A DNA stretch of 64,000 nt from an uncultured Planctomycetota bacterium (GCA_963752285.1 CAVVXN010000004.1:64001-128000), one strand, 5' to 3'. Positions 34,774 through 41,890 are shown, counted from the stretch's first letter. Notes: a model not told the origin generated them from the letters alone. Numbers and translations are program-made.

Positions 34774-35763
34774 ATGGACCGCGGCGCCGCGCGCTCGAAT
34801 CGTCGGGGATGGCCGCCCGCCGTGGGGGGCGCTCTCCTGCTGGCGCTCGTAGTCGTCGGCGGCCGGGCGGTCGCGCACCAGGACGCCGTCGAGGCGCCTC
34901 GCGTTCGGGGATGGCGCACGCCGGCCCCCCCCGAGCACGCGGTGGACGTCGTGTTCGTGGGCGACGGATACCAGAAGAAGCATCTGTCGCCGAGCGGGAA
35001 GTACTGGACCGACGTCAATCGCTACGCGAAGCGGTTCCTCGAGGAGCCGCCGATGTCCTGGTACCGCGACTCCATCAACGTGTGGGCGGTGTTCCTGGAG
35101 TCGAAGGACGCCGGCGTGGACGGCGACACGGCGCTCGGGTGTCACTTCATCGACGACCGTCGCGTCGTGTTCCGGAACGAGAAGGCGGTCCGCGCGGCCG
35201 TGTCCCTCGTCCCGAGCGCCGACATCGCCCTCGTCATGGTCAACGTCGAGCGCTCGGGCGGCTGCGGCACCGTCCTCTCGCCCCTCGATCGCGGCGACCC
35301 GTACTTTCCCGCGCCGACCTTCTCCGCGCAGGACACGTCGTCGTTCGACATCGCGCTCCACGAGCTCGGCCACAGCTTCGCGGGGCTGGCCGACGAGTAC
35401 GCCGACTCGACCGTCGCGGACGAGTTCCCGCTACCGAAGGACGGGAAGGATCTCGACTTCCCGAACGTGACCCTGGCGTCCGTCCTCGACGCGACCAGCC
35501 CCGAGACGATCCGCAAGACCGCGAAGTGGGCCCGCTTCCTCGACTGGAAGGGTGCCGACCACTGGACGTGGGCGTACGAGGGGGGGTACTTCCGCGAGCA
35601 CGGGGTGTACCGGCCGTTCCCACGCTGCAAGATGCGGGACCGTGGCGAGCCGTTCTGCCCCCTCTGTTGCGCAACGTTCGCGCAGGCCATCTGCAAGACC
35701 GCCGGCATCGACTTCGACGAGGCGGGGTACGCGCGGAAGCACCCGCTGCAGCTCTGGCGATAG
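34774..35763 (+). CDS. Peptidase M64 (IgA peptidase-like) family protein
   Basis: VFVGDGY, HELGHSFAGLADEY, YEGG, YRP...CKM....FCPLC; GGAGG SD. Confidence 0.88.
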   Translation: MDRGAARSNRRGWPPAVGGALLLALVVVGGRAVAHQDAVEAPRVRGWRTPAPPEHAVDVVFVGDGYQKKHLSPSGKYWTDVNRYAKRFLEEPPMSWYRDSINVWAVFLESKDAGVDGDTALGCHFIDDRRVVFRNEKAVRAAVSLVPSADIALVMVNVERSGGCGTVLSPLDRGDPYFPAPTFSAQDTSSFDIALHELGHSFAGLADEYADSTVADEFPLPKDGKDLDFPNVTLASVLDATSPETIRKTAKWARFLDWKGADHWTWAYEGGYFREHGVYRPFPRCKMRDRGEPFCPLCCATFAQAICKTAGIDFDEAGYARKHPLQLWR

Positions 35764-35859
35764 CGAGACCCCACAAGCGGGGCCGTCCCACGGCCGTGCG
35801 TTCGTGAGGACCCTCGGCAGGCACCGCCCCGGAACGGGCGGCGGACCGTTCGCCGGGCG

Positions 35860-36307
35860 CGACCGTCGCGCCGCTGCGACGACTGCCGGCCCGAGCGGAC
35901 GGCGGCGAGCTGGTACTGGGGATGGGGCTATCGCGGGATGGGGGGCGTCGTCACCACCGCTACGGATCTCCTCCGATGGGACCGCGCGGCGCATCGCGGG
36001 CGAGCTCGACCGGGCCGCGGCGGCACACGAGACAGACGTTGGGCCCGGGAGCGGCGCGGAGGGCGCAGCCGCCTTCCAAGGCGGCCTGTACCTGCTCGCG
36101 TACGGCGCCGACACGCGCCTCCACCTCTCGGTCCCCGTCCAGGCCGAGTCCCGCGGCATCGACGAGAAGTGCCTGGCGCTCGAGGACCCCCGCACGCTCC
36201 TCCTCCTCGAAGACGGACCACGAGGCATGTGGCCGATGCTGGTCAAGATGAACGTCCCCGCTGCCCGCGGACTGGCCGAGGCCTTCGGGAAGTCGTCCGC
36301 GCGCTGA
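35860..36307 (+). pseudogene. Serine hydrolase (beta-lactamase family) remnant fused out of frame to a C-terminal fragment
   Basis: WYWGWGYRGMGGVVTTATDLLRWDRA at 35911-35988 with no N-terminus or SxxK; protein-like sequence continues in another frame to stop 36307. Confidence 0.55.
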
Positions 36308-36459
36308 CGCAGGACGGGCGAGGCGGGGCTTGGCCGCCGCGCGCTCGGGCATCCGCCCCGTCCGCCCCGGCGCCACCGGCTCGCGGCCGATGCGGTGACC
36401 CGCACGCAGCGTGCGGGACCGGCCCCCCGCCGCCGCGGCGGCGCTCACCGCCGCGCGCC

Positions 36460-37401
36460 TCAGGTGAGCCGGCGCAGGACCAGACGCGCGACGCCGAGGA
36501 GCACGAGCGCGTTCGCCGCGATCCGGAGCGGGGGGATCTCGGGCCGCGGGAACGACAGGCGTACCCAGTCGGCCTGACGGTGCCAGACGCCGAGCCGCAG
36601 TCTCGCCTCGTGGCGGAGGAGGACGAGGTCGCCGTCCTCGGGCTCCCGCTCGGGATCGATCCCCACCAGGTCGCCCGCCTCGACGCGGGGATGGCCGTCG
36701 TCGCACGTCGCGCGCCAGAGCCAACGCGCGCCGTCCAGGACTGCGCGGTCCACGTGGACCACCTCGCCCGCGCCCGACCGGTCGGGATCGTCCACGACGG
36801 GGAGCGCGACGTCGGCGCGCGCGACCGGAGCCGGGGCTCCGTCGTGGGCCGTCGCCGGCGCTGGCGAGGGCGCGTGCGCGAGCACGCTCGGCAGCACGCG
36901 GACGAGCGCGTTTCGCTCGGCGGGCGTCGTGCCTTCGAGGAGCGTCTCCGAGCGCGCCTCCGCCTCGTCCACGTTCTTGACGCCGCCCAGCCGGCCGAGG
37001 AGTCGCGCGACCAGGGCCTGCTGGCCGGGACCGAGGTCGAGGAAGTGGCTCAGCGGCTCGACGACGCGCGGGCCGCGGGCGAGGTGGAACAGGGTGGTGG
37101 CGAGGATCCGGTCGCGGCTCCTCTGGACCTGCCCGCTCTCGCGCTGCATCCGTTCGAGGTGCCGGCGGACGGGGGCGGGGGAGCGCTCGAGGGCGGCCGC
37201 CTCCTGGAGGGGGCCGTCCTCGATCCCGAGCGCCCGGCAGAGCGCCCGGATCACGCGCGGGCTCGGCGGGCGCCGGCGCCGGGACTCGAGGACGCTGATG
37301 TAGGAGCCCGTGAGACCGGCCCGCCGGGCGAGCGCGGACTGGGAGAGCCCGGAGAGGCGGCGGGCCTCCTTCAGCTTCTCGGCGAAGGTCTTCTCGGTCA
37401 C
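36460..37401 (-). CDS. XRE-family HTH regulator with C-terminal S24/LexA-like domain (catalytic residues absent)
   Basis: LKEARRLSGLSQSALARRAGLTGSYISVLES HTH; P.VEAGDLV.IDP.....DGDLVL S24-like fold; GTG 37401 is 7 nt after TAGGAT (ATG 37410 alternative). Confidence 0.85.
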   Translation of the reverse strand: MTEKTFAEKLKEARRLSGLSQSALARRAGLTGSYISVLESRRRRPPSPRVIRALCRALGIEDGPLQEAAALERSPAPVRRHLERMQRESGQVQRSRDRILATTLFHLARGPRVVEPLSHFLDLGPGQQALVARLLGRLGGVKNVDEAEARSETLLEGTTPAERNALVRVLPSVLAHAPSPAPATAHDGAPAPVARADVALPVVDDPDRSGAGEVVHVDRAVLDGARWLWRATCDDGHPRVEAGDLVGIDPEREPEDGDLVLLRHEARLRLGVWHRQADWVRLSFPRPEIPPLRIAANALVLLGVARLVLRRLT

Positions 37402-37438
37402 GGTCGTCATCCTACGGGTCCGGGGCCCTGTCCATGCC

Positions 37439-37478
37439 TGACAAGTCATCGAGGGAATGTCGTTGACTAACCAGTTAG
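37439..37478. promoter_or_regulatory. Two palindromic operator-like sites TRAC-NN-GTYA
   Basis: TGACaaGTCA at 37439-37448 and cTAACcaGTTAg at 37467-37478. Confidence 0.6.
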
Positions 37479-37490
37479 AGATGGTAGCCT
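37463..37490 (+). promoter_or_regulatory. Sigma70-type promoter
   Basis: TTGACT (37463-37468), 16-nt spacer ending TGG (extended -10), TAGCCT (37485-37490) in an AT-rich patch. Confidence 0.6.
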
Positions 37491-37496
37491 CCCCCT

Positions 37497-37702
37497 GTCG
37501 GTGGCGGCCCGGGTGGTCCGGGCCGGGCCGACCGGAAAGGGTTCGGTGGGTCCCGAGACAACGCACGGTCGACGGACGCGAGCGAGGCGGGGGCTGAGGC
37601 CGAACACAAGGAACGGGTCGGACGGGCTCGAAATCCCCAAGTCGCGCCGGACGCCTTTCACGGGGCGCCCGCTCCTACGGGGGCGGGCGCCCCCCTTCGT
37701 TT
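37497..37702 (+). ncRNA. Candidate structured small RNA (~200 nt)
   Basis: Bounded by promoter and terminator, no ATG, several hairpins; family not recognised. Confidence 0.45.
37662..37702 (+). terminator. Rho-independent terminator
   Basis: 14-bp GC stem ggggcgcccgctcc / ggggcgggcgcccc with UACG tetraloop, followed by ccttcgttt. Confidence 0.7.
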
Positions 37703-37842
37703 CGGGGGCGCAGCGGCGAGGAACGCCCGGCGCGAAGCGGCGCGCGGCCGAATCTGGCCAATTCGCCACCGCCTCGTGCGCGCCCTTCTCGACTCCTTCA
37801 CGTGGTGCAGGCGGACGCGCCCGCGAACGGCGCGGATTCGGC

Positions 37843-37870
37843 AAAAGATTCGCGACTCCTATGCCGATCG
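37843..37870 (+). promoter_or_regulatory. Possible sigma28-like promoter
   Basis: AAAAG-attcgcgactcctat-GCCGATCG resembles TAAAG..GCCGATAA; spacing about one base longer than consensus. Confidence 0.3.
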
Positions 37871-37949
37871 AAACCCTGCACGGGGGAGGGCCGGCACGGC
37901 GTTTGGTCGAAGCATCGATCGAGGGACCGCGTCGGAGGTCGGGATCGTC

Positions 37950-38450
37950 ATGATGCGAGCGAACGTCCGCCGAACCGAGGGGGCAGTCATCGCGAGAGGA
38001 GGGGCCCCGCGCTTCGCGCCGCGTCCGGTTGGACCGTACGCCGCGCATCCGACGCGACACGTGCTCCCGAGGCTCGGCGCCTTCCTCGCGCTGGCCGTTC
38101 TCGCGTCCAGCGCATGGGCAGCCATCGGCGAGTATCGCTGCACGGACCCGGCGCGTGTCTATCACGGCAACCCGCGCCTCATCCGCAAGCCCGCGGTCAT
38201 CTCCGCCGACCGCGTGTACGAGAGGATCCCCGAGTACAAGCAGATCGTGGACGAGGGTCTCTCGGACAAGGACGTCCGCTACCACTTCCTCATGAAGAAG
38301 GCGTCCGAGCGCTTCGCGAAGGCGGTGAAGTCGATGGCCGGCGCGCTCGGCTACGACTTCGTGGCCGAGATCGGGACGATCAAGAGGGAGAAGCAGGATG
38401 CCGACGCCCCGCCCGATCGCACGGACGACGTGATCGAGCGTCTCGGCTGA
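37950..38450 (+). CDS. Secreted short Skp/OmpH-like protein
   Basis: Signal peptide (SAWA-A), PAVISADRVY..IPEY, AVKSMA...GYDFV, DRTDDVIERL; start could be GTG 38061. Confidence 0.6.
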   Translation: MMRANVRRTEGAVIARGGAPRFAPRPVGPYAAHPTRHVLPRLGAFLALAVLASSAWAAIGEYRCTDPARVYHGNPRLIRKPAVISADRVYERIPEYKQIVDEGLSDKDVRYHFLMKKASERFAKAVKSMAGALGYDFVAEIGTIKREKQDADAPPDRTDDVIERLG

Positions 38451-38452
38451 CC

Positions 38453-39628
38453 GTGCGCCGCGCCTGGCTCGGCGCGCTCCTCGTCGTCGCTTCGCTTTCC
38501 CGTGCCCGGGCCGAGGACGAGCCGCGAAGGAGCCCCTTCCTCGGGCCCGGCGGCGAGGTGCGGACGATCTTCCGTCCGGAGTTCCGGGACGCGCCGGGCC
38601 TCCTCGATGACCTCGCCCGGTTCGGCGTCGAGGGCCTCCAGGCGTCCGTCGTCGGTCCCGAGGTCGCCGTGCCCGGGCCCAACAAGCCGCCCGTGGGCGC
38701 GCGTCTCCTGCTCCGGGGCGACGCCGAGGTGGTGGCGCGCGCGCGCGAGGTGCTGGTCTACCTCGACGTGCCGCGCCCGAGCGTCGTCGTGTCGCTGCTC
38801 GTGTGCGAGGTGCGCGCGACGGGACGGTCGGAGCGCGGCGGGCACGTGTTCCTGGATCGCGTCCAGCCGAGCGGGGCGCCCGACTCGATCGTTCGGGGCG
38901 CGTTCGCCGACTTCGAGCCCGAGTCCTACCTGCGGTCGGCCTTGACCGGCGTCGCCCCGTTCCAGGGGACGAGTCTCACGTTCGGTACCTCGCCCAGCGA
39001 CGTGGCGGAGAACGGGGCGTTCGAGTACGTCCTCCGCCTCCTGGCCGAGGAGGGCGAGGCCGAGTTCCTCGCGTGGCCCACGGTCGTGGTCTCGGAGGGG
39101 TCACCGGGCGTCATCGAGAGCCACACGCGTCTGCCCGACGTCGTCCTCTCCGGGGCGGGGCCGAACGCCGTGGCCCTCGGCCGCGCGATCGAGACCGGCC
39201 TGGTCCTGACCGTCACGCCCCAGCGCGTCTCGCGCGACGCCGCGGTGCTCGGACTCGTCGTGGACCTCGCGTACGCCGAACCCGAGTCGCCTTCGGCCGG
39301 CAGCGCCTCGCCGTGGATCCTGCGCAAGCGGCGCGTCCAGACCCTGGTGAGCGTTCGCGACCAGGAGCCCGTGCTCCTCGGCGGCCTCTACCTGAGGCGC
39401 CACATTCGAAACCGATACGGCGTGCCCTGGATCTCCAGCACGCCGGGCCTGGAGGAGGTGGGCTCCGCCGAGTCGCTCGACTGCGTCACGACGGAACTCC
39501 TGCTCTCGATCCGGGCCCGGGTGCGTGTGGCGGCATCCGACTCGGGGCGCTTCGTGGCGCCGGGCGTGGCGCGACGGATGGAGCGCCGGTCCCGCGCGGC
39601 GGACCCCGGCGCCCCTCGTCCTCGCTGA
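38453..39628 (+). CDS. Secretin (type II/III secretion GspD-like), single N-domain
   Basis: LLLRG..VV..AREVL..LDVPRPSV.V, P.VVV..G..G.I, TGLVLTVTP, T.V.VRD...V.LGGL, GVPWI...PGL, ELLLSI. Confidence 0.75.
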   Translation: MRRAWLGALLVVASLSRARAEDEPRRSPFLGPGGEVRTIFRPEFRDAPGLLDDLARFGVEGLQASVVGPEVAVPGPNKPPVGARLLLRGDAEVVARAREVLVYLDVPRPSVVVSLLVCEVRATGRSERGGHVFLDRVQPSGAPDSIVRGAFADFEPESYLRSALTGVAPFQGTSLTFGTSPSDVAENGAFEYVLRLLAEEGEAEFLAWPTVVVSEGSPGVIESHTRLPDVVLSGAGPNAVALGRAIETGLVLTVTPQRVSRDAAVLGLVVDLAYAEPESPSAGSASPWILRKRRVQTLVSVRDQEPVLLGGLYLRRHIRNRYGVPWISSTPGLEEVGSAESLDCVTTELLLSIRARVRVAASDSGRFVAPGVARRMERRSRAADPGAPRPR

Positions 39629-39637
39629 CCGGCGCGC

Positions 39638-41890
39638 TCAGTGCCGGCGGCGACGGCGGTCGCCGCCGCCTCCGCTGCCGCCCCGGCCGCCGCGGTCGCC
39701 GCGGTCGCCGCGGTCGCCCCGGTCGCCCTGCTCTCCGCGGGGCGGCGGGGGGCCGCTGCCCTCGGGGGCCTGGGCCTCCTCCGCGCGACCGAGCTCGTGC
39801 AGCGCCTGGCGGCGCGAGAGCTTCACGCGACCGGAGTCGTCGATCAGGATGACCTTCACCGGCGTGATGTCGCCCAGCGAGAGCACGTCGGTCACGCGGC
39901 CGACGTAGCCGTCGGCGAGCTCGCTCACGTGGCAGAGTCCCTCGACGCCCGGGATGATCTCGAGGAACGCGCCGAAGTCCTTCACGGACGTGACCTTGCC
40001 CTCGTAGATCTTGCCGAGGGTCGCTTCCTCGGACATCGCCTCGATGTGGTGCCGCGCCGCGATCGCGCCGTCGGCCTTCGTGCAGAAGATCTTGACGAGC
40101 CCGGTGTCGTCGACTTCGATCGTGGTCCCGGTCTCCTCCTGGAGACGCCGGATGTTCTTTCCGCCGGGGCCGATCAGGGCGCCGATCTTGTCGGGCGGGA
40201 TCTGCACCGTCTCCACGCGCGGCGCGTAACGGTTGTACTCCTCGCGCGGACGCGGCAGGGCCTGGAGCATCCGCTTGAGGATGTGGATCCGGCCCTCCTT
40301 CGCCTGCTCGAGGGCGCGGCGGAGGATCTCGGTCGAGATCCCCTTCATCTTGATGTCCATCTGGAGCGCGGTGATGCCCCGCTGGGAGCCCGCGACCTTG
40401 AAGTCCATGTCTCCGGCGTGGTCCTCGTCGCCGAGGATGTCGGAGAGCACGACCACGTCGTCGCCCTCCTTCACGAGCCCCATCGCGATGCCGGCGACCG
40501 GCCGGGCGATTTGAATGCCCGCGTCCATCATGGCGAGCGTCGTGCCGCAGACGGACGCCATGCTCGACGAGCCGTTCGACATGAGGATGTCGGAGACCAC
40601 GCGGATCGTGTAGGGGAACGTGTCCATCGGAGGCAGCACCGGCAGGAGCGAGCGCTCCGCCAGCGCGCCGTGCCCGATCTCGCGCCGGGAGGGGCCCCGG
40701 ATGGGCCGCGTCTCGCCGACGCAGAGCGGGGGGAAGTTGTAGTGCAGGTAGTACTTGCGCGTGAAGGACTGCGCTTGCAGTCCGTCCACGAGCTTCTCGT
40801 CGAGCCCCGTGCCGAGCGTCGCGGTGACCAGAGCCTGGGTCTCGCCGCGCGTGAAGAGCGCGGAGCCGTGGGCGCGGGGGAGCAAGCCGATCTCGATGTC
40901 GATCGGACGGACCTCGTCGGTCGCGCGGCCGTCGATGCGGCGCCCGGACAGGGCCGCGGCGCGCAAGATCTTCTTCTCGATGGCCCCCGTGGCCGCATCG
41001 ACCTCGGCGGGGGTGAACCGGCCCTCGGCCGGGACCTCGTTCTGCGTGTCGGCGAGCTCCTCCCGGATCTCGGCCCGGAGCGCGGTGAGGGACGCGATCC
41101 GCTCGAGCTTCGAGGTCTTGTGCATCGCCGTGCGGATCGCGTCCTCGAACTTCTCGCGCACCGCGGTGACGGCCGTGTCGGACACCGGGGCGGGGACGAA
41201 CGCCGGAGCCTCCCAGCCCACCTTGCGGCGGAGCTCCTCCATCGCCTCGCAGATCTGGCGGATGATCTCGTGGCCGAACTCGATGGCGCCGAGGACGACG
41301 TCCTCGGGCAGCTCGTTCGCGCCGCCCTCGACCATCGTGACCGCGTCGCGCGTGCCCGCGACCACCAGGTCGAGGGGAGAGCTCTGCAGCACCTGCGCGT
41401 CGGGGAACGCGACGTAGTCGTCGCCGGACATGCCGACCCGCACGCCGCCGATCGGCCCGAGGAACGGTACGGCGGCGATCGCCAGGGCGCCGCCGGCGCC
41501 GATGATCGAGAGCACGTCCGGGTCGTTCAGCTGGTCGTACGAGATGACGAAGCTCTGGACCTGCGTGTCCATCTTGTAGCCCTTCGGCCAGAGGGGCCGA
41601 ATCGGGCGATCCGTCATCCGCATCGTGAGGATCTCCTTCGGCGAAGGCGGACCCTCTCTCTTCAGGAACCCTCCGGGGATCTTCCCGGCGCTGTAGTTCT
41701 TCTCGCGGTAGTCGATCGTGAGCGGGAAGAAGTCGAGATGGGGGCGAGGCGGGGAGACGCTCGCGGCGCTGAGCACCATCGTCTCGCCGTATCTCACCAT
41801 CACGCTGCCCGCGGCCAGGCGGGCCATGCGACCGGTCTCGATCGTCAGGGGCTTCCCCCCGACGTCGATCGTCACGCTGTGAATGGGCAA
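39638..41890 (-). CDS. pnp: Polyribonucleotide nucleotidyltransferase
   Basis: FFPLTIDYRE, RREIGHG, SNGSSSMAS, GDMDFKVAG, KH and S1 domains; TTG start. Confidence 0.98.
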   Translation of the reverse strand: MPIHSVTIDVGGKPLTIETGRMARLAAGSVMVRYGETMVLSAASVSPPRPHLDFFPLTIDYREKNYSAGKIPGGFLKREGPPSPKEILTMRMTDRPIRPLWPKGYKMDTQVQSFVISYDQLNDPDVLSIIGAGGALAIAAVPFLGPIGGVRVGMSGDDYVAFPDAQVLQSSPLDLVVAGTRDAVTMVEGGANELPEDVVLGAIEFGHEIIRQICEAMEELRRKVGWEAPAFVPAPVSDTAVTAVREKFEDAIRTAMHKTSKLERIASLTALRAEIREELADTQNEVPAEGRFTPAEVDAATGAIEKKILRAAALSGRRIDGRATDEVRPIDIEIGLLPRAHGSALFTRGETQALVTATLGTGLDEKLVDGLQAQSFTRKYYLHYNFPPLCVGETRPIRGPSRREIGHGALAERSLLPVLPPMDTFPYTIRVVSDILMSNGSSSMASVCGTTLAMMDAGIQIARPVAGIAMGLVKEGDDVVVLSDILGDEDHAGDMDFKVAGSQRGITALQMDIKMKGISTEILRRALEQAKEGRIHILKRMLQALPRPREEYNRYAPRVETVQIPPDKIGALIGPGGKNIRRLQEETGTTIEVDDTGLVKIFCTKADGAIAARHHIEAMSEEATLGKIYEGKVTSVKDFGAFLEIIPGVEGLCHVSELADGYVGRVTDVLSLGDITPVKVILIDDSGRVKLSRRQALHELGRAEEAQAPEGSGPPPPRGEQGDRGDRGDRGDRGGRGGSGGGGDRRRRRH

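Follow-up and report, generated by a model that had tools for sequence, protein, structure and literature searches.

On comparative evidence, an undescribed small non-coding RNA (sRNA) is a real element of the repressor locus described here, and its likely target, overlooked by the first-pass annotation of this DNA, is the set of exbD leaders in a distant motor operon. The best reading of the locus, which is held with good though not full confidence, is that of a repressor-gated base-pairing sRNA that sets the supply of ExbD. The window, that is, the whole stretch of 64,000 nucleotides that was analysed (G000:C4:64001-128000), belongs to a genome (G000) of 4.64 Mb that is 89% complete. Its closest protein clusters, together with one named record that has the gene order of this locus, place it in Planctomycetota. 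It was studied together with its own family (f1, 29 genomes) and a sister family (f2, 11 genomes), within the 40 genomes of the order, and a wider sample of 401 genomes of the phylum served for relatives of the repressor and for the operator pattern. The evidence is comparative throughout, and the genomes are incomplete and the organisms related.

Organisation of the locus

The RNA locus sits between a minus-strand XRE-family gene and a plus-strand pair of Skp-like and secretin genes, and its DNA resembles that of relatives from the -35 hexamer through the terminator. The features of the window are the following:

36460..37401, minus strand: XRE (HTH_3) repressor gene, coding for a helical domain in the middle and, at the C terminus, a non-catalytic S24 (LexA/CI-like) domain (Pfam, alignment, fold search)
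37409..37414, minus strand: -10 hexamer that probably serves the repressor gene, 6-7 nt ahead of the start codon (deduced, uncounted)
37437..37450, no strand: weak second operator, the upstream palindrome of the first-pass annotation (5.4 bits with the operator matrix)
37463..37490, plus strand: sigma-70-type promoter of the sRNA, -35 at 37463-37468 and -10 at 37485-37490 (kept in homologous loci)
37466..37479, no strand: main operator, a palindrome of 14 bp lying across the -35 hexamer and spacer (top hit of the genome with the matrix)
37497..37702, plus strand: small non-coding RNA, about 205 nt with its terminator (5' end deduced from the -10 hexamer)
37497..37532, plus strand: 5' hairpin P1, with a conserved RWGGU loop at 37513-37517 (covariation helices 1 and 2)
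37535..37659, plus strand: main domain, with the closing helix P2 (37535-37546 with 37647-37659), a variable side hairpin and a long stem bearing the seed loop (helices 3-5)
37610..37626, plus strand: seed, complementary to exbD leaders (37613-37624 invariant in 22/22 aligned RNAs)
37662..37702, plus strand: intrinsic terminator, with a 14-pair stem, UACG loop and U-rich tail (stem-loop 37662-37693)
37746..37763, plus strand: conserved upstream motif outside the RNA, a probable site for an enhancer-binding protein (26/35 loci)
37892..37906, plus strand: sigma-54-like -24/-12 promoter serving the Skp-like and secretin genes (19/35 loci)
37950-38450, plus strand: Skp/OmpH-like gene (syntenic, separately promoted)
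about 38453-39628, plus strand: short secretin gene (syntenic, separately promoted)

The promoter from which the sRNA would be transcribed had been read as TTGACT-N16-TAGCCT, and the two hexamers and the 16-nt spacer are indeed found, with both hexamers present at the equivalent place in homologues; a strict sigma-70 scan did not call it (0 found). The two palindromes sharing TRAC-NN-GTYA that had been proposed as operators likewise exist (37439-37448 and 37468-37477), although the true element is the 14-bp palindrome at 37466-37479, with the consensus ACWAAC-NN-GTTWGT, and its 22.8 bits, against no more than 5.4 for the upstream copy, are the top score of the whole genome with a matrix built with this very site included. 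The 10-mer TRACNNGTYA, suggested for a genome scan, occurs 19 times in the genome. The main operator is kept beside the repressor gene in several families, and a second copy of at least 15 bits is found in 6 of 35 loci. Its position and its co-conservation with the repressor suggest that the XRE/S24 protein binds the palindrome and represses the sRNA promoter.

A wider regulon is not apparent from the operator matrix in this genome or from the operator pattern in the 401 genomes. The matrix yields six hits of at least 13 bits, of which those other than the top two are AT-rich patches, and the pattern matched in 22 of the 401 genomes, mostly at the repressor locus. The second-best hit, a perfect 14-bp palindrome at G000:C1:858927, precedes a TetR-like gene (called by eye from the N-terminal sequence), and a low-GC island at C5:2180115-2180253 yields spurious hits. 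Operator-plus-promoter matches off known repressor loci occur at L241, L245, L258, L259, L238, L239 and L249, and a perfect copy in G128 is among the matches of this kind.

The repressor and its relatives

Repressor orthologues are present in 33 of the 40 genomes of the order, with one each in 24 of the 29 f1 genomes. Translation probably starts at a GTG at 37401 on a leaderless mRNA (an ATG at 37410 is the alternative), and a TAGGAT-like hexamer is equally spaced in most orthologues of the family, as read, uncounted, from their upstream sequences. According to the structural model and a fold search, the C-terminal domain has the LexA/CI fold, LexA and the lambda repressor being the best solved matches. 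The protein thus shares the S24 fold of the self-cleaving LexA/CI class and lacks its catalytic dyad and cleavage site: the catalytic Ser and Lys and the Ala-Gly site, at what we take to be the positions of the Ser-Lys dyad and the Ala/Cys-Gly motif in S24 repressors, are absent in 29/29 aligned f1/f2 orthologues. The earlier proposal of a non-cleavable CI-like protein opposite an undescribed sRNA therefore stands. One orthologue (L229, in G264) contains a single in-frame TAG near the start of the match.

An alignment search found relatives of the repressor in 38 of the 401 sampled genomes, and the unit that diverges from the repressor gene differs among families. It is a shorter RNA with a different core in f2 (nine loci), a shorter RNA that shares the 5' loop and has a related core in f35 (four loci), an RNA-like leader that continues into exbD genes in f96 (three loci), an exbD pair without leader in f17 (one locus) and a small Cro-like gene, opposite a catalytically intact repressor, in f45/f89 (three loci); no such unit lies beside the repressor gene in the three loci of f58 and f62. 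Four relatives (L234-L237) keep Ala-Gly, Ser and Lys; three of them (L234-L236) face a Cro-like gene of 64-73 aa, with the operator described above also present in L234 and L235, an arrangement that is possibly the ancestral cI/cro form. The f51/f67 orthologues (L223, L224, L227) stand opposite another kind of RNA, a long hairpin that contains U-rich runs and, within the transcript, an operator-like sequence.

Distribution and structure of the RNA

The RNA lies in full before the repressor gene in 22 of 24 f1 loci, the other two being one cut by a contig end and one without upstream DNA. A covariance model (R1) finds one copy in 23/29 f1 genomes, 22 of which supplied the training sequences, and in 0/11 f2 genomes; the copy adjoins the XRE/S24 gene in 22 of the 23 genomes, the exception being a locus split over contig ends. 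In a scan of a sequence collection with a 17-nt core pattern, among the matches listed, one of 80 flanked loci (L098, in a Planctomycetota record) shows the repressor-RNA-Skp-secretin arrangement and the remaining 79 are chance-like.

The fold comprises a 5' hairpin, a closing helix of 12 pairs, a side hairpin, a long stem with a loop of about 20 nt that holds a 12-nt invariant core, and the terminator. A check for covariation in the regions upstream of XRE orthologues had been suggested: across the alignment, 93% of 690 cells are paired, and both sides have changed in 24 of 32 pairs. None of 500 shuffles matches the real score, and slid controls pair at 33-58%, a comparison in which the tested structure is favoured, as it came from the same sequences. 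The folding energy without the terminator is unremarkable (z = -0.58). Of the elements drawn in the first-pass annotation, the hairpin at 37506-37524 and the 14-bp UACG terminator at 37662-37693 with its short U tract are present, a GC-rich hairpin occurring at the place of the latter in 22/22 aligned family loci. A second hairpin at 37525-37554 conflicts with the covarying fold, in which 37535-37546 pairs with 37647-37659, and a pairing of the 5' and 3' ends finds no support, the 5' end pairing instead with 37527-37532. The purine-rich stretch does exist; it is the 5' part of the invariant loop and not a CsrA site. Hairpin loops of the RWGGU type are shared by f1, f35 and two f96 RNAs (L228-L230, L233; L218, L219). 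A pseudoknot joining the seed to the 5' hairpin, possible in f1, is by eye not kept in f35 and was dropped. The seed may bear some likeness to 23S rRNA.

With a conserved promoter, a terminator and no conserved reading frame, the element has, computationally, the properties of a stand-alone non-coding unit. There is no ATG in 37491-37702, as had been noticed, and the GTG-start open reading frame that had been named as a possible refutation exists (37501-37953); the distances between conserved blocks spread over the three frames (10/7/5 and 7/11/4 of 22), and a start led by a Shine-Dalgarno sequence (SD) and open to the core is found in at most 4 of 22 RNAs in any frame. Nothing comes near an Rfam gathering score in positions 35000-40000 of the window, and nothing was matched in eight homologous loci. 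The stated unlikeness to SRP, tmRNA and RNase P RNA holds, each of these being found elsewhere in the genome.

The predicted target

The exbD operon of this genome was examined because the f96 and f17 repressor and operator drive exbD genes directly, so that the target had been picked ahead of seeing any complement. The cluster lies at about 1.220-1.231 Mb of C5 and consists of a secretin gene, two TPR-type genes, tolQ/exbB, exbD1, exbD2 and exbD3. Its principal site is the following:

G000:C5:1228809-1228822: seed complement before exbD1, 14 bp, ending 17 nt before the exbD1 start

Shorter complements precede exbB, exbD2 and exbD3, and the 26 of 1582 rough gene leaders of the genome with a complement of at least 9 nt include those of exbB, exbD1, exbD2 and exbD3. 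When up to two mismatches were allowed in a scan of the same genome, the matches were too numerous for ranking. A 12-nt seed complement also precedes an iron-sulphur protein gene (G000:C1:539376).

Within the order, exbB has an orthologue in 34 of 40 genomes, and a usable exbB-exbD1 spacer is available for 22 f1 and 11 f2 operons. The exact 9-mer complement is found in this spacer in 17/22 f1, 0/11 f2 and 0/9 other genomes, with a chance expectation of about 0.002 per 130 nt, and the site is the most shared 8-mer among the f1 spacers (shuffles: mean 0.23, maximum 3). A relaxed pattern finds it in 21 of the 22 f1 spacers; in the exception, G006, the repressor and RNA were not found. The spacer of that genome (93% complete; L351) has no f1 site, yet contains blocks that resemble the f2-type target. 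In G021 (94% complete) and G024 (88%), the site or a variant is kept and the RNA was not found. One-mismatch variants of the f1 site are compatible with G-U pairing in 4 of 14 cases. The orientation is strict, with 25 exact sites on the mRNA strand of f1 exbD leaders and 0 on the opposite strand.

Among downstream exbD genes, blocks complementary to the seed also precede 18 of 20 that have a long spacer against 1 of 17 that are coupled, in a comparison in which the long-spacer genes had longer windows and the pattern was fixed after the data were seen. The extra exbD paralogues are scattered over a quick version of the ExbD tree, as if by several duplications. The sites in exbB leaders are weaker (10/22, against 2.7 in shuffles). 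A search of the order for a site followed by SD and ATG gave 39 hits in f1, 6 in f2 and, for the reversed control, 9 in f1; 17 of the 39 lie in the motor operon and 2 before ExbD-like proteins at another locus. The f1 sites end 12-23 nt and the f2 sites 10-15 nt ahead of the start codon, and the mean cost of opening the seed is 5.0 kcal/mol, set against a duplex energy of -19.8.

The sRNA thus has a well-supported predicted target in the exbD leaders, with which it would pair in vivo: an accessible conserved seed is accompanied by a co-varying complement in an unlinked mRNA, as expected of a trans-acting sRNA. Other possible targets (L313, L314, L316, L318) are ExbD-domain fusion genes in G025 and G016 and a phosphate-porin-like gene in G024 and G007. 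A -10-like motif about 70-95 nt before exbB in 16 of 22 f1 loci (L263-L284) suggests an internal exbB-exbD promoter, and the exbB of G335 (L293) carries one in-frame TAG near the start of the match, which, like that in the repressor L229, may reflect an assembly error, an offset start or read-through.

Co-variation of seed and target between families

The f2 RNAs carry another core, and the f2 spacers hold two or three blocks complementary to that core. The f2-type two-block complements occur in 8/11 and 7/11 f2 spacers, against 1/22 and 0/22 in f1; a looser f2 target pattern matched in 40/40 genomes and is therefore non-discriminating. Within f2, matched changes in RNA and leader are seen in G029 and G039, private pairing extensions in G038 and G030, and the loss of one block from both RNA and leader in G031. 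Own RNA-leader pairs beat swapped ones (p = 0.008 over nine genomes and 0.0014 over seven genera), figures inflated by relatedness, as kin are not independent, and the own target ranks first among partners in only three of seven f2 genera. The whole-leader duplex energy with the own against the foreign family is -31.9 against -27.9 in f1, a modest difference, and -40.3 against -32.2 in f2. In f35 and f96 the evidence is patchy: only 4 of 23 leaders beat at least 98 of 100 shuffles, one of them with a 12-bp site ahead of exbD2 in G293. The f2, f35 and f96 RNAs escape detection by model R1, and their kinship with the RNA described here is therefore read from position and a loose likeness of the core; the position suggests common descent of the f1, f2, f35 and f96 RNAs.

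Proposed mechanism and sign of regulation

Under the preferred reading, the XRE/S24 protein would keep the sRNA promoter off by occupying the palindrome over the -35 hexamer, and the weak upstream operator probably limits the synthesis of the repressor itself. Repression would be lifted by a signal other than RecA-driven self-cleavage, whereupon the RNA would be made and would end at its own terminator. Its G-rich loop could then pair with the C-rich site upstream of the ribosome-binding site (RBS) of exbD1 in the distant secretin-TPR-TPR-tolQ/exbB-exbD1-exbD2 mRNA, and with like sites before further exbD paralogues, and pairing would reset the output of ExbD relative to ExbB. Hfq (PF17209) was not found in this genome, at its 89% completeness.

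Given pairing, activation is the sign that is slightly preferred, repression is an appreciable second, and an effect on stability or termination has a small share. Activation is favoured because the extra paralogues of five genomes (G009, G011, G028, G016, G025) have strong hairpins in which the site itself locks the RBS, because the cis arrangement of f17 and f96 would yield more ExbD on de-repression, and because the seed resembles an RBS yet never covers one, lying over neither SD nor start codon in any of the 38 leaders examined. The same observations weigh against the variant of this explanation in which the same RNA, on the same target, blocks entry of the 30S subunit, shuts exbD translation and lowers motor assembly. 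A duplex that abuts the SD usually inhibits translation, and such a duplex is predicted in the analysed f2 leaders and several f1 ones, the gap between site and SD being 0-2 nt in many leaders and the sites lying close to the start codon. There is, moreover, no specific anti-SD signal: sequestration of the SD by the site is greater in real than in shuffled sequences in only 17 of 38 leaders, and blocking the site before exbD1 gains 1.1 kcal/mol, where a control block gains 0.7. As a complete account, repression is considered possible and rather unlikely.

Alternative readings

A second alternative, which is improbable, dispenses with pairing: the matches would be binding sites of a single protein that recognises DNA or RNA, or would merely follow from C-rich leaders, with the RNA acting through a protein. 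The conserved 5' loop does suggest protein contact, and complements of 9 nt are common in coding sequence because the genomes have about 73% G+C. Against it stand the strict complementary orientation, two families with different seeds that each match their own leaders only, and the split blocks and compensatory changes of f2.

Still less probable is the earlier suggestion that the RNA is an attenuator, or a riboswitch leader, of the downstream Skp-like and secretin genes. The Skp-like gene is syntenic in f1, f2 and f35, which would agree with it, as would f96, where the 5' leader of an exbD gene holds a related core and no clear terminator. Attenuation is disfavoured because the downstream genes carry, beyond the terminator, their own motif (26/35 loci, with a pattern drawn from the same 35 loci) and their own sigma-54-like promoter (19/35 loci, against 0.02 expected per 900 nt, with the -24/-12 consensus that we assume), rpoN being present in the genome. 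The 18-nt motif occurs once in the genome, about 145 nt before that promoter. In addition, the predicted folds of the 22 RNAs include the terminator hairpin, and a distant target accounts for the invariant loop.

A stand-in for 6S RNA that binds RNA polymerase is very unlikely. The size of about 200 nt would fit, and Rfam detects 6S RNA in only one of 29 f1 genomes; however, the fold is branched, with no rod containing a central bubble, and has no match to RF00013, and f2 has a canonical 6S RNA (10/11) alongside the repressor-linked RNA. Furthermore, this genome has a diverged 6S-like rod at the syntenic position following pheT (L383:186-375, G000:C5 about 585385-585574; a minus-strand match of 10.4 bits against a cut-off of 46.4), and the 6S RNA of f1 may be too diverged for detection by Rfam. 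Finally, an RNA that sequesters CsrA/RsmA, or a short translated reading frame, can hardly be entertained: the five GGA triplets in 165 nt and the GTG-start frame speak for them, but the hinted CsrA binding is unsupported because CsrA was found in 0/40 genomes of the order (by a search whose control was positive in 3/14), the conserved GGA motifs are few and not in repeated hairpin loops as in CsrB/RsmZ, and the block distances and starts reported above agree with no frame.

Comparison with known systems and significance

The gcvA-gcvB, sgrR-sgrS and oxyR-oxyS loci encode trans-acting base-pairing sRNAs with a divergent regulator. The base-pairing sRNA proposed here resembles them in the divergent regulator gene, in its own sigma-70 promoter and terminator, in the conserved single-stranded seed and in the location of its sites in the leaders of an unlinked operon, several per polycistronic message. 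It differs in that the regulator is CI-like and placed as a repressor, in having no Rfam family, in that Hfq was not found in its genome nor CsrA in the order, and in a G-rich seed that varies between families while the target gene is constant. Activation through anti-antisense pairing is known from DsrA and RprA on rpoS, and the likeness, a pairing upstream of the SD with a stretch that pairs to the RBS, is clearest before the extra exbD paralogues, whereas here the site is very near the SD and the inhibitory hairpin is not conserved for exbD1.

With lambda cI/cro and LexA, the repressor shares the HTH and S24 fold, the operator over a divergent promoter and a probably leaderless mRNA; it differs in the loss of the catalytic Ser, Lys and Ala-Gly, in about 100 extra residues forming a helical domain, in being a single chromosomal copy and in facing an sRNA or exbD genes. 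A tentative extension, considered doubtful, is that several planctomycete lineages have domesticated a phage-type cI/cro switch to control an envelope proton motor and nothing else, the cro slot being taken by spare exbD genes or by an sRNA that activates otherwise silent exbD paralogues, with the seed rewritten along with its targets and without Hfq. If this were true, one signal would retool the two-subunit core of the motor.

The target operon resembles loci for a poorly understood type of machine, a proton-driven motor of the cell envelope. In the PVC group, loci that combine TPR genes with a gene resembling tolQ and a tolR-like pair encode motors with vWA force transducers whose function is called unknown in the accessible part of PMC12204202. 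The operon described here is like them in its TPR genes, one MotA/TolQ/ExbB gene and heterologous ExbD/TolR pair; it is different in that a secretin precedes the TPR genes, extra exbD paralogues are frequent and no vWA gene is adjacent, a sulfatase following instead (by Pfam in this genome, most others looking alike). An RNA regulator of such loci is not mentioned in that part of PMC12204202. The literature that was searched, mostly abstracts, with subscription papers and supplements outside reach, yielded neither a planctomycete sRNA acting on exbD/tolR nor the present repressor.

The element would accordingly represent, in Planctomycetota, a base-pairing sRNA whose target is defined and co-evolving, of which the literature search found no report. 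It offers a clean example of a seed that changes along with its target from family to family, and of one circuit that some lineages wire in cis and others in trans, and the seed, the sites and the compensatory variants can be tested without culturing the hosts. It also points at an unsolved machine, the TPR-TolQ-TolR-TolR motor of the PVC group (as described in the accessible part of PMC12204202), for which the signal that lifts repression would reveal when cells need more, fewer or different ExbD subunits.
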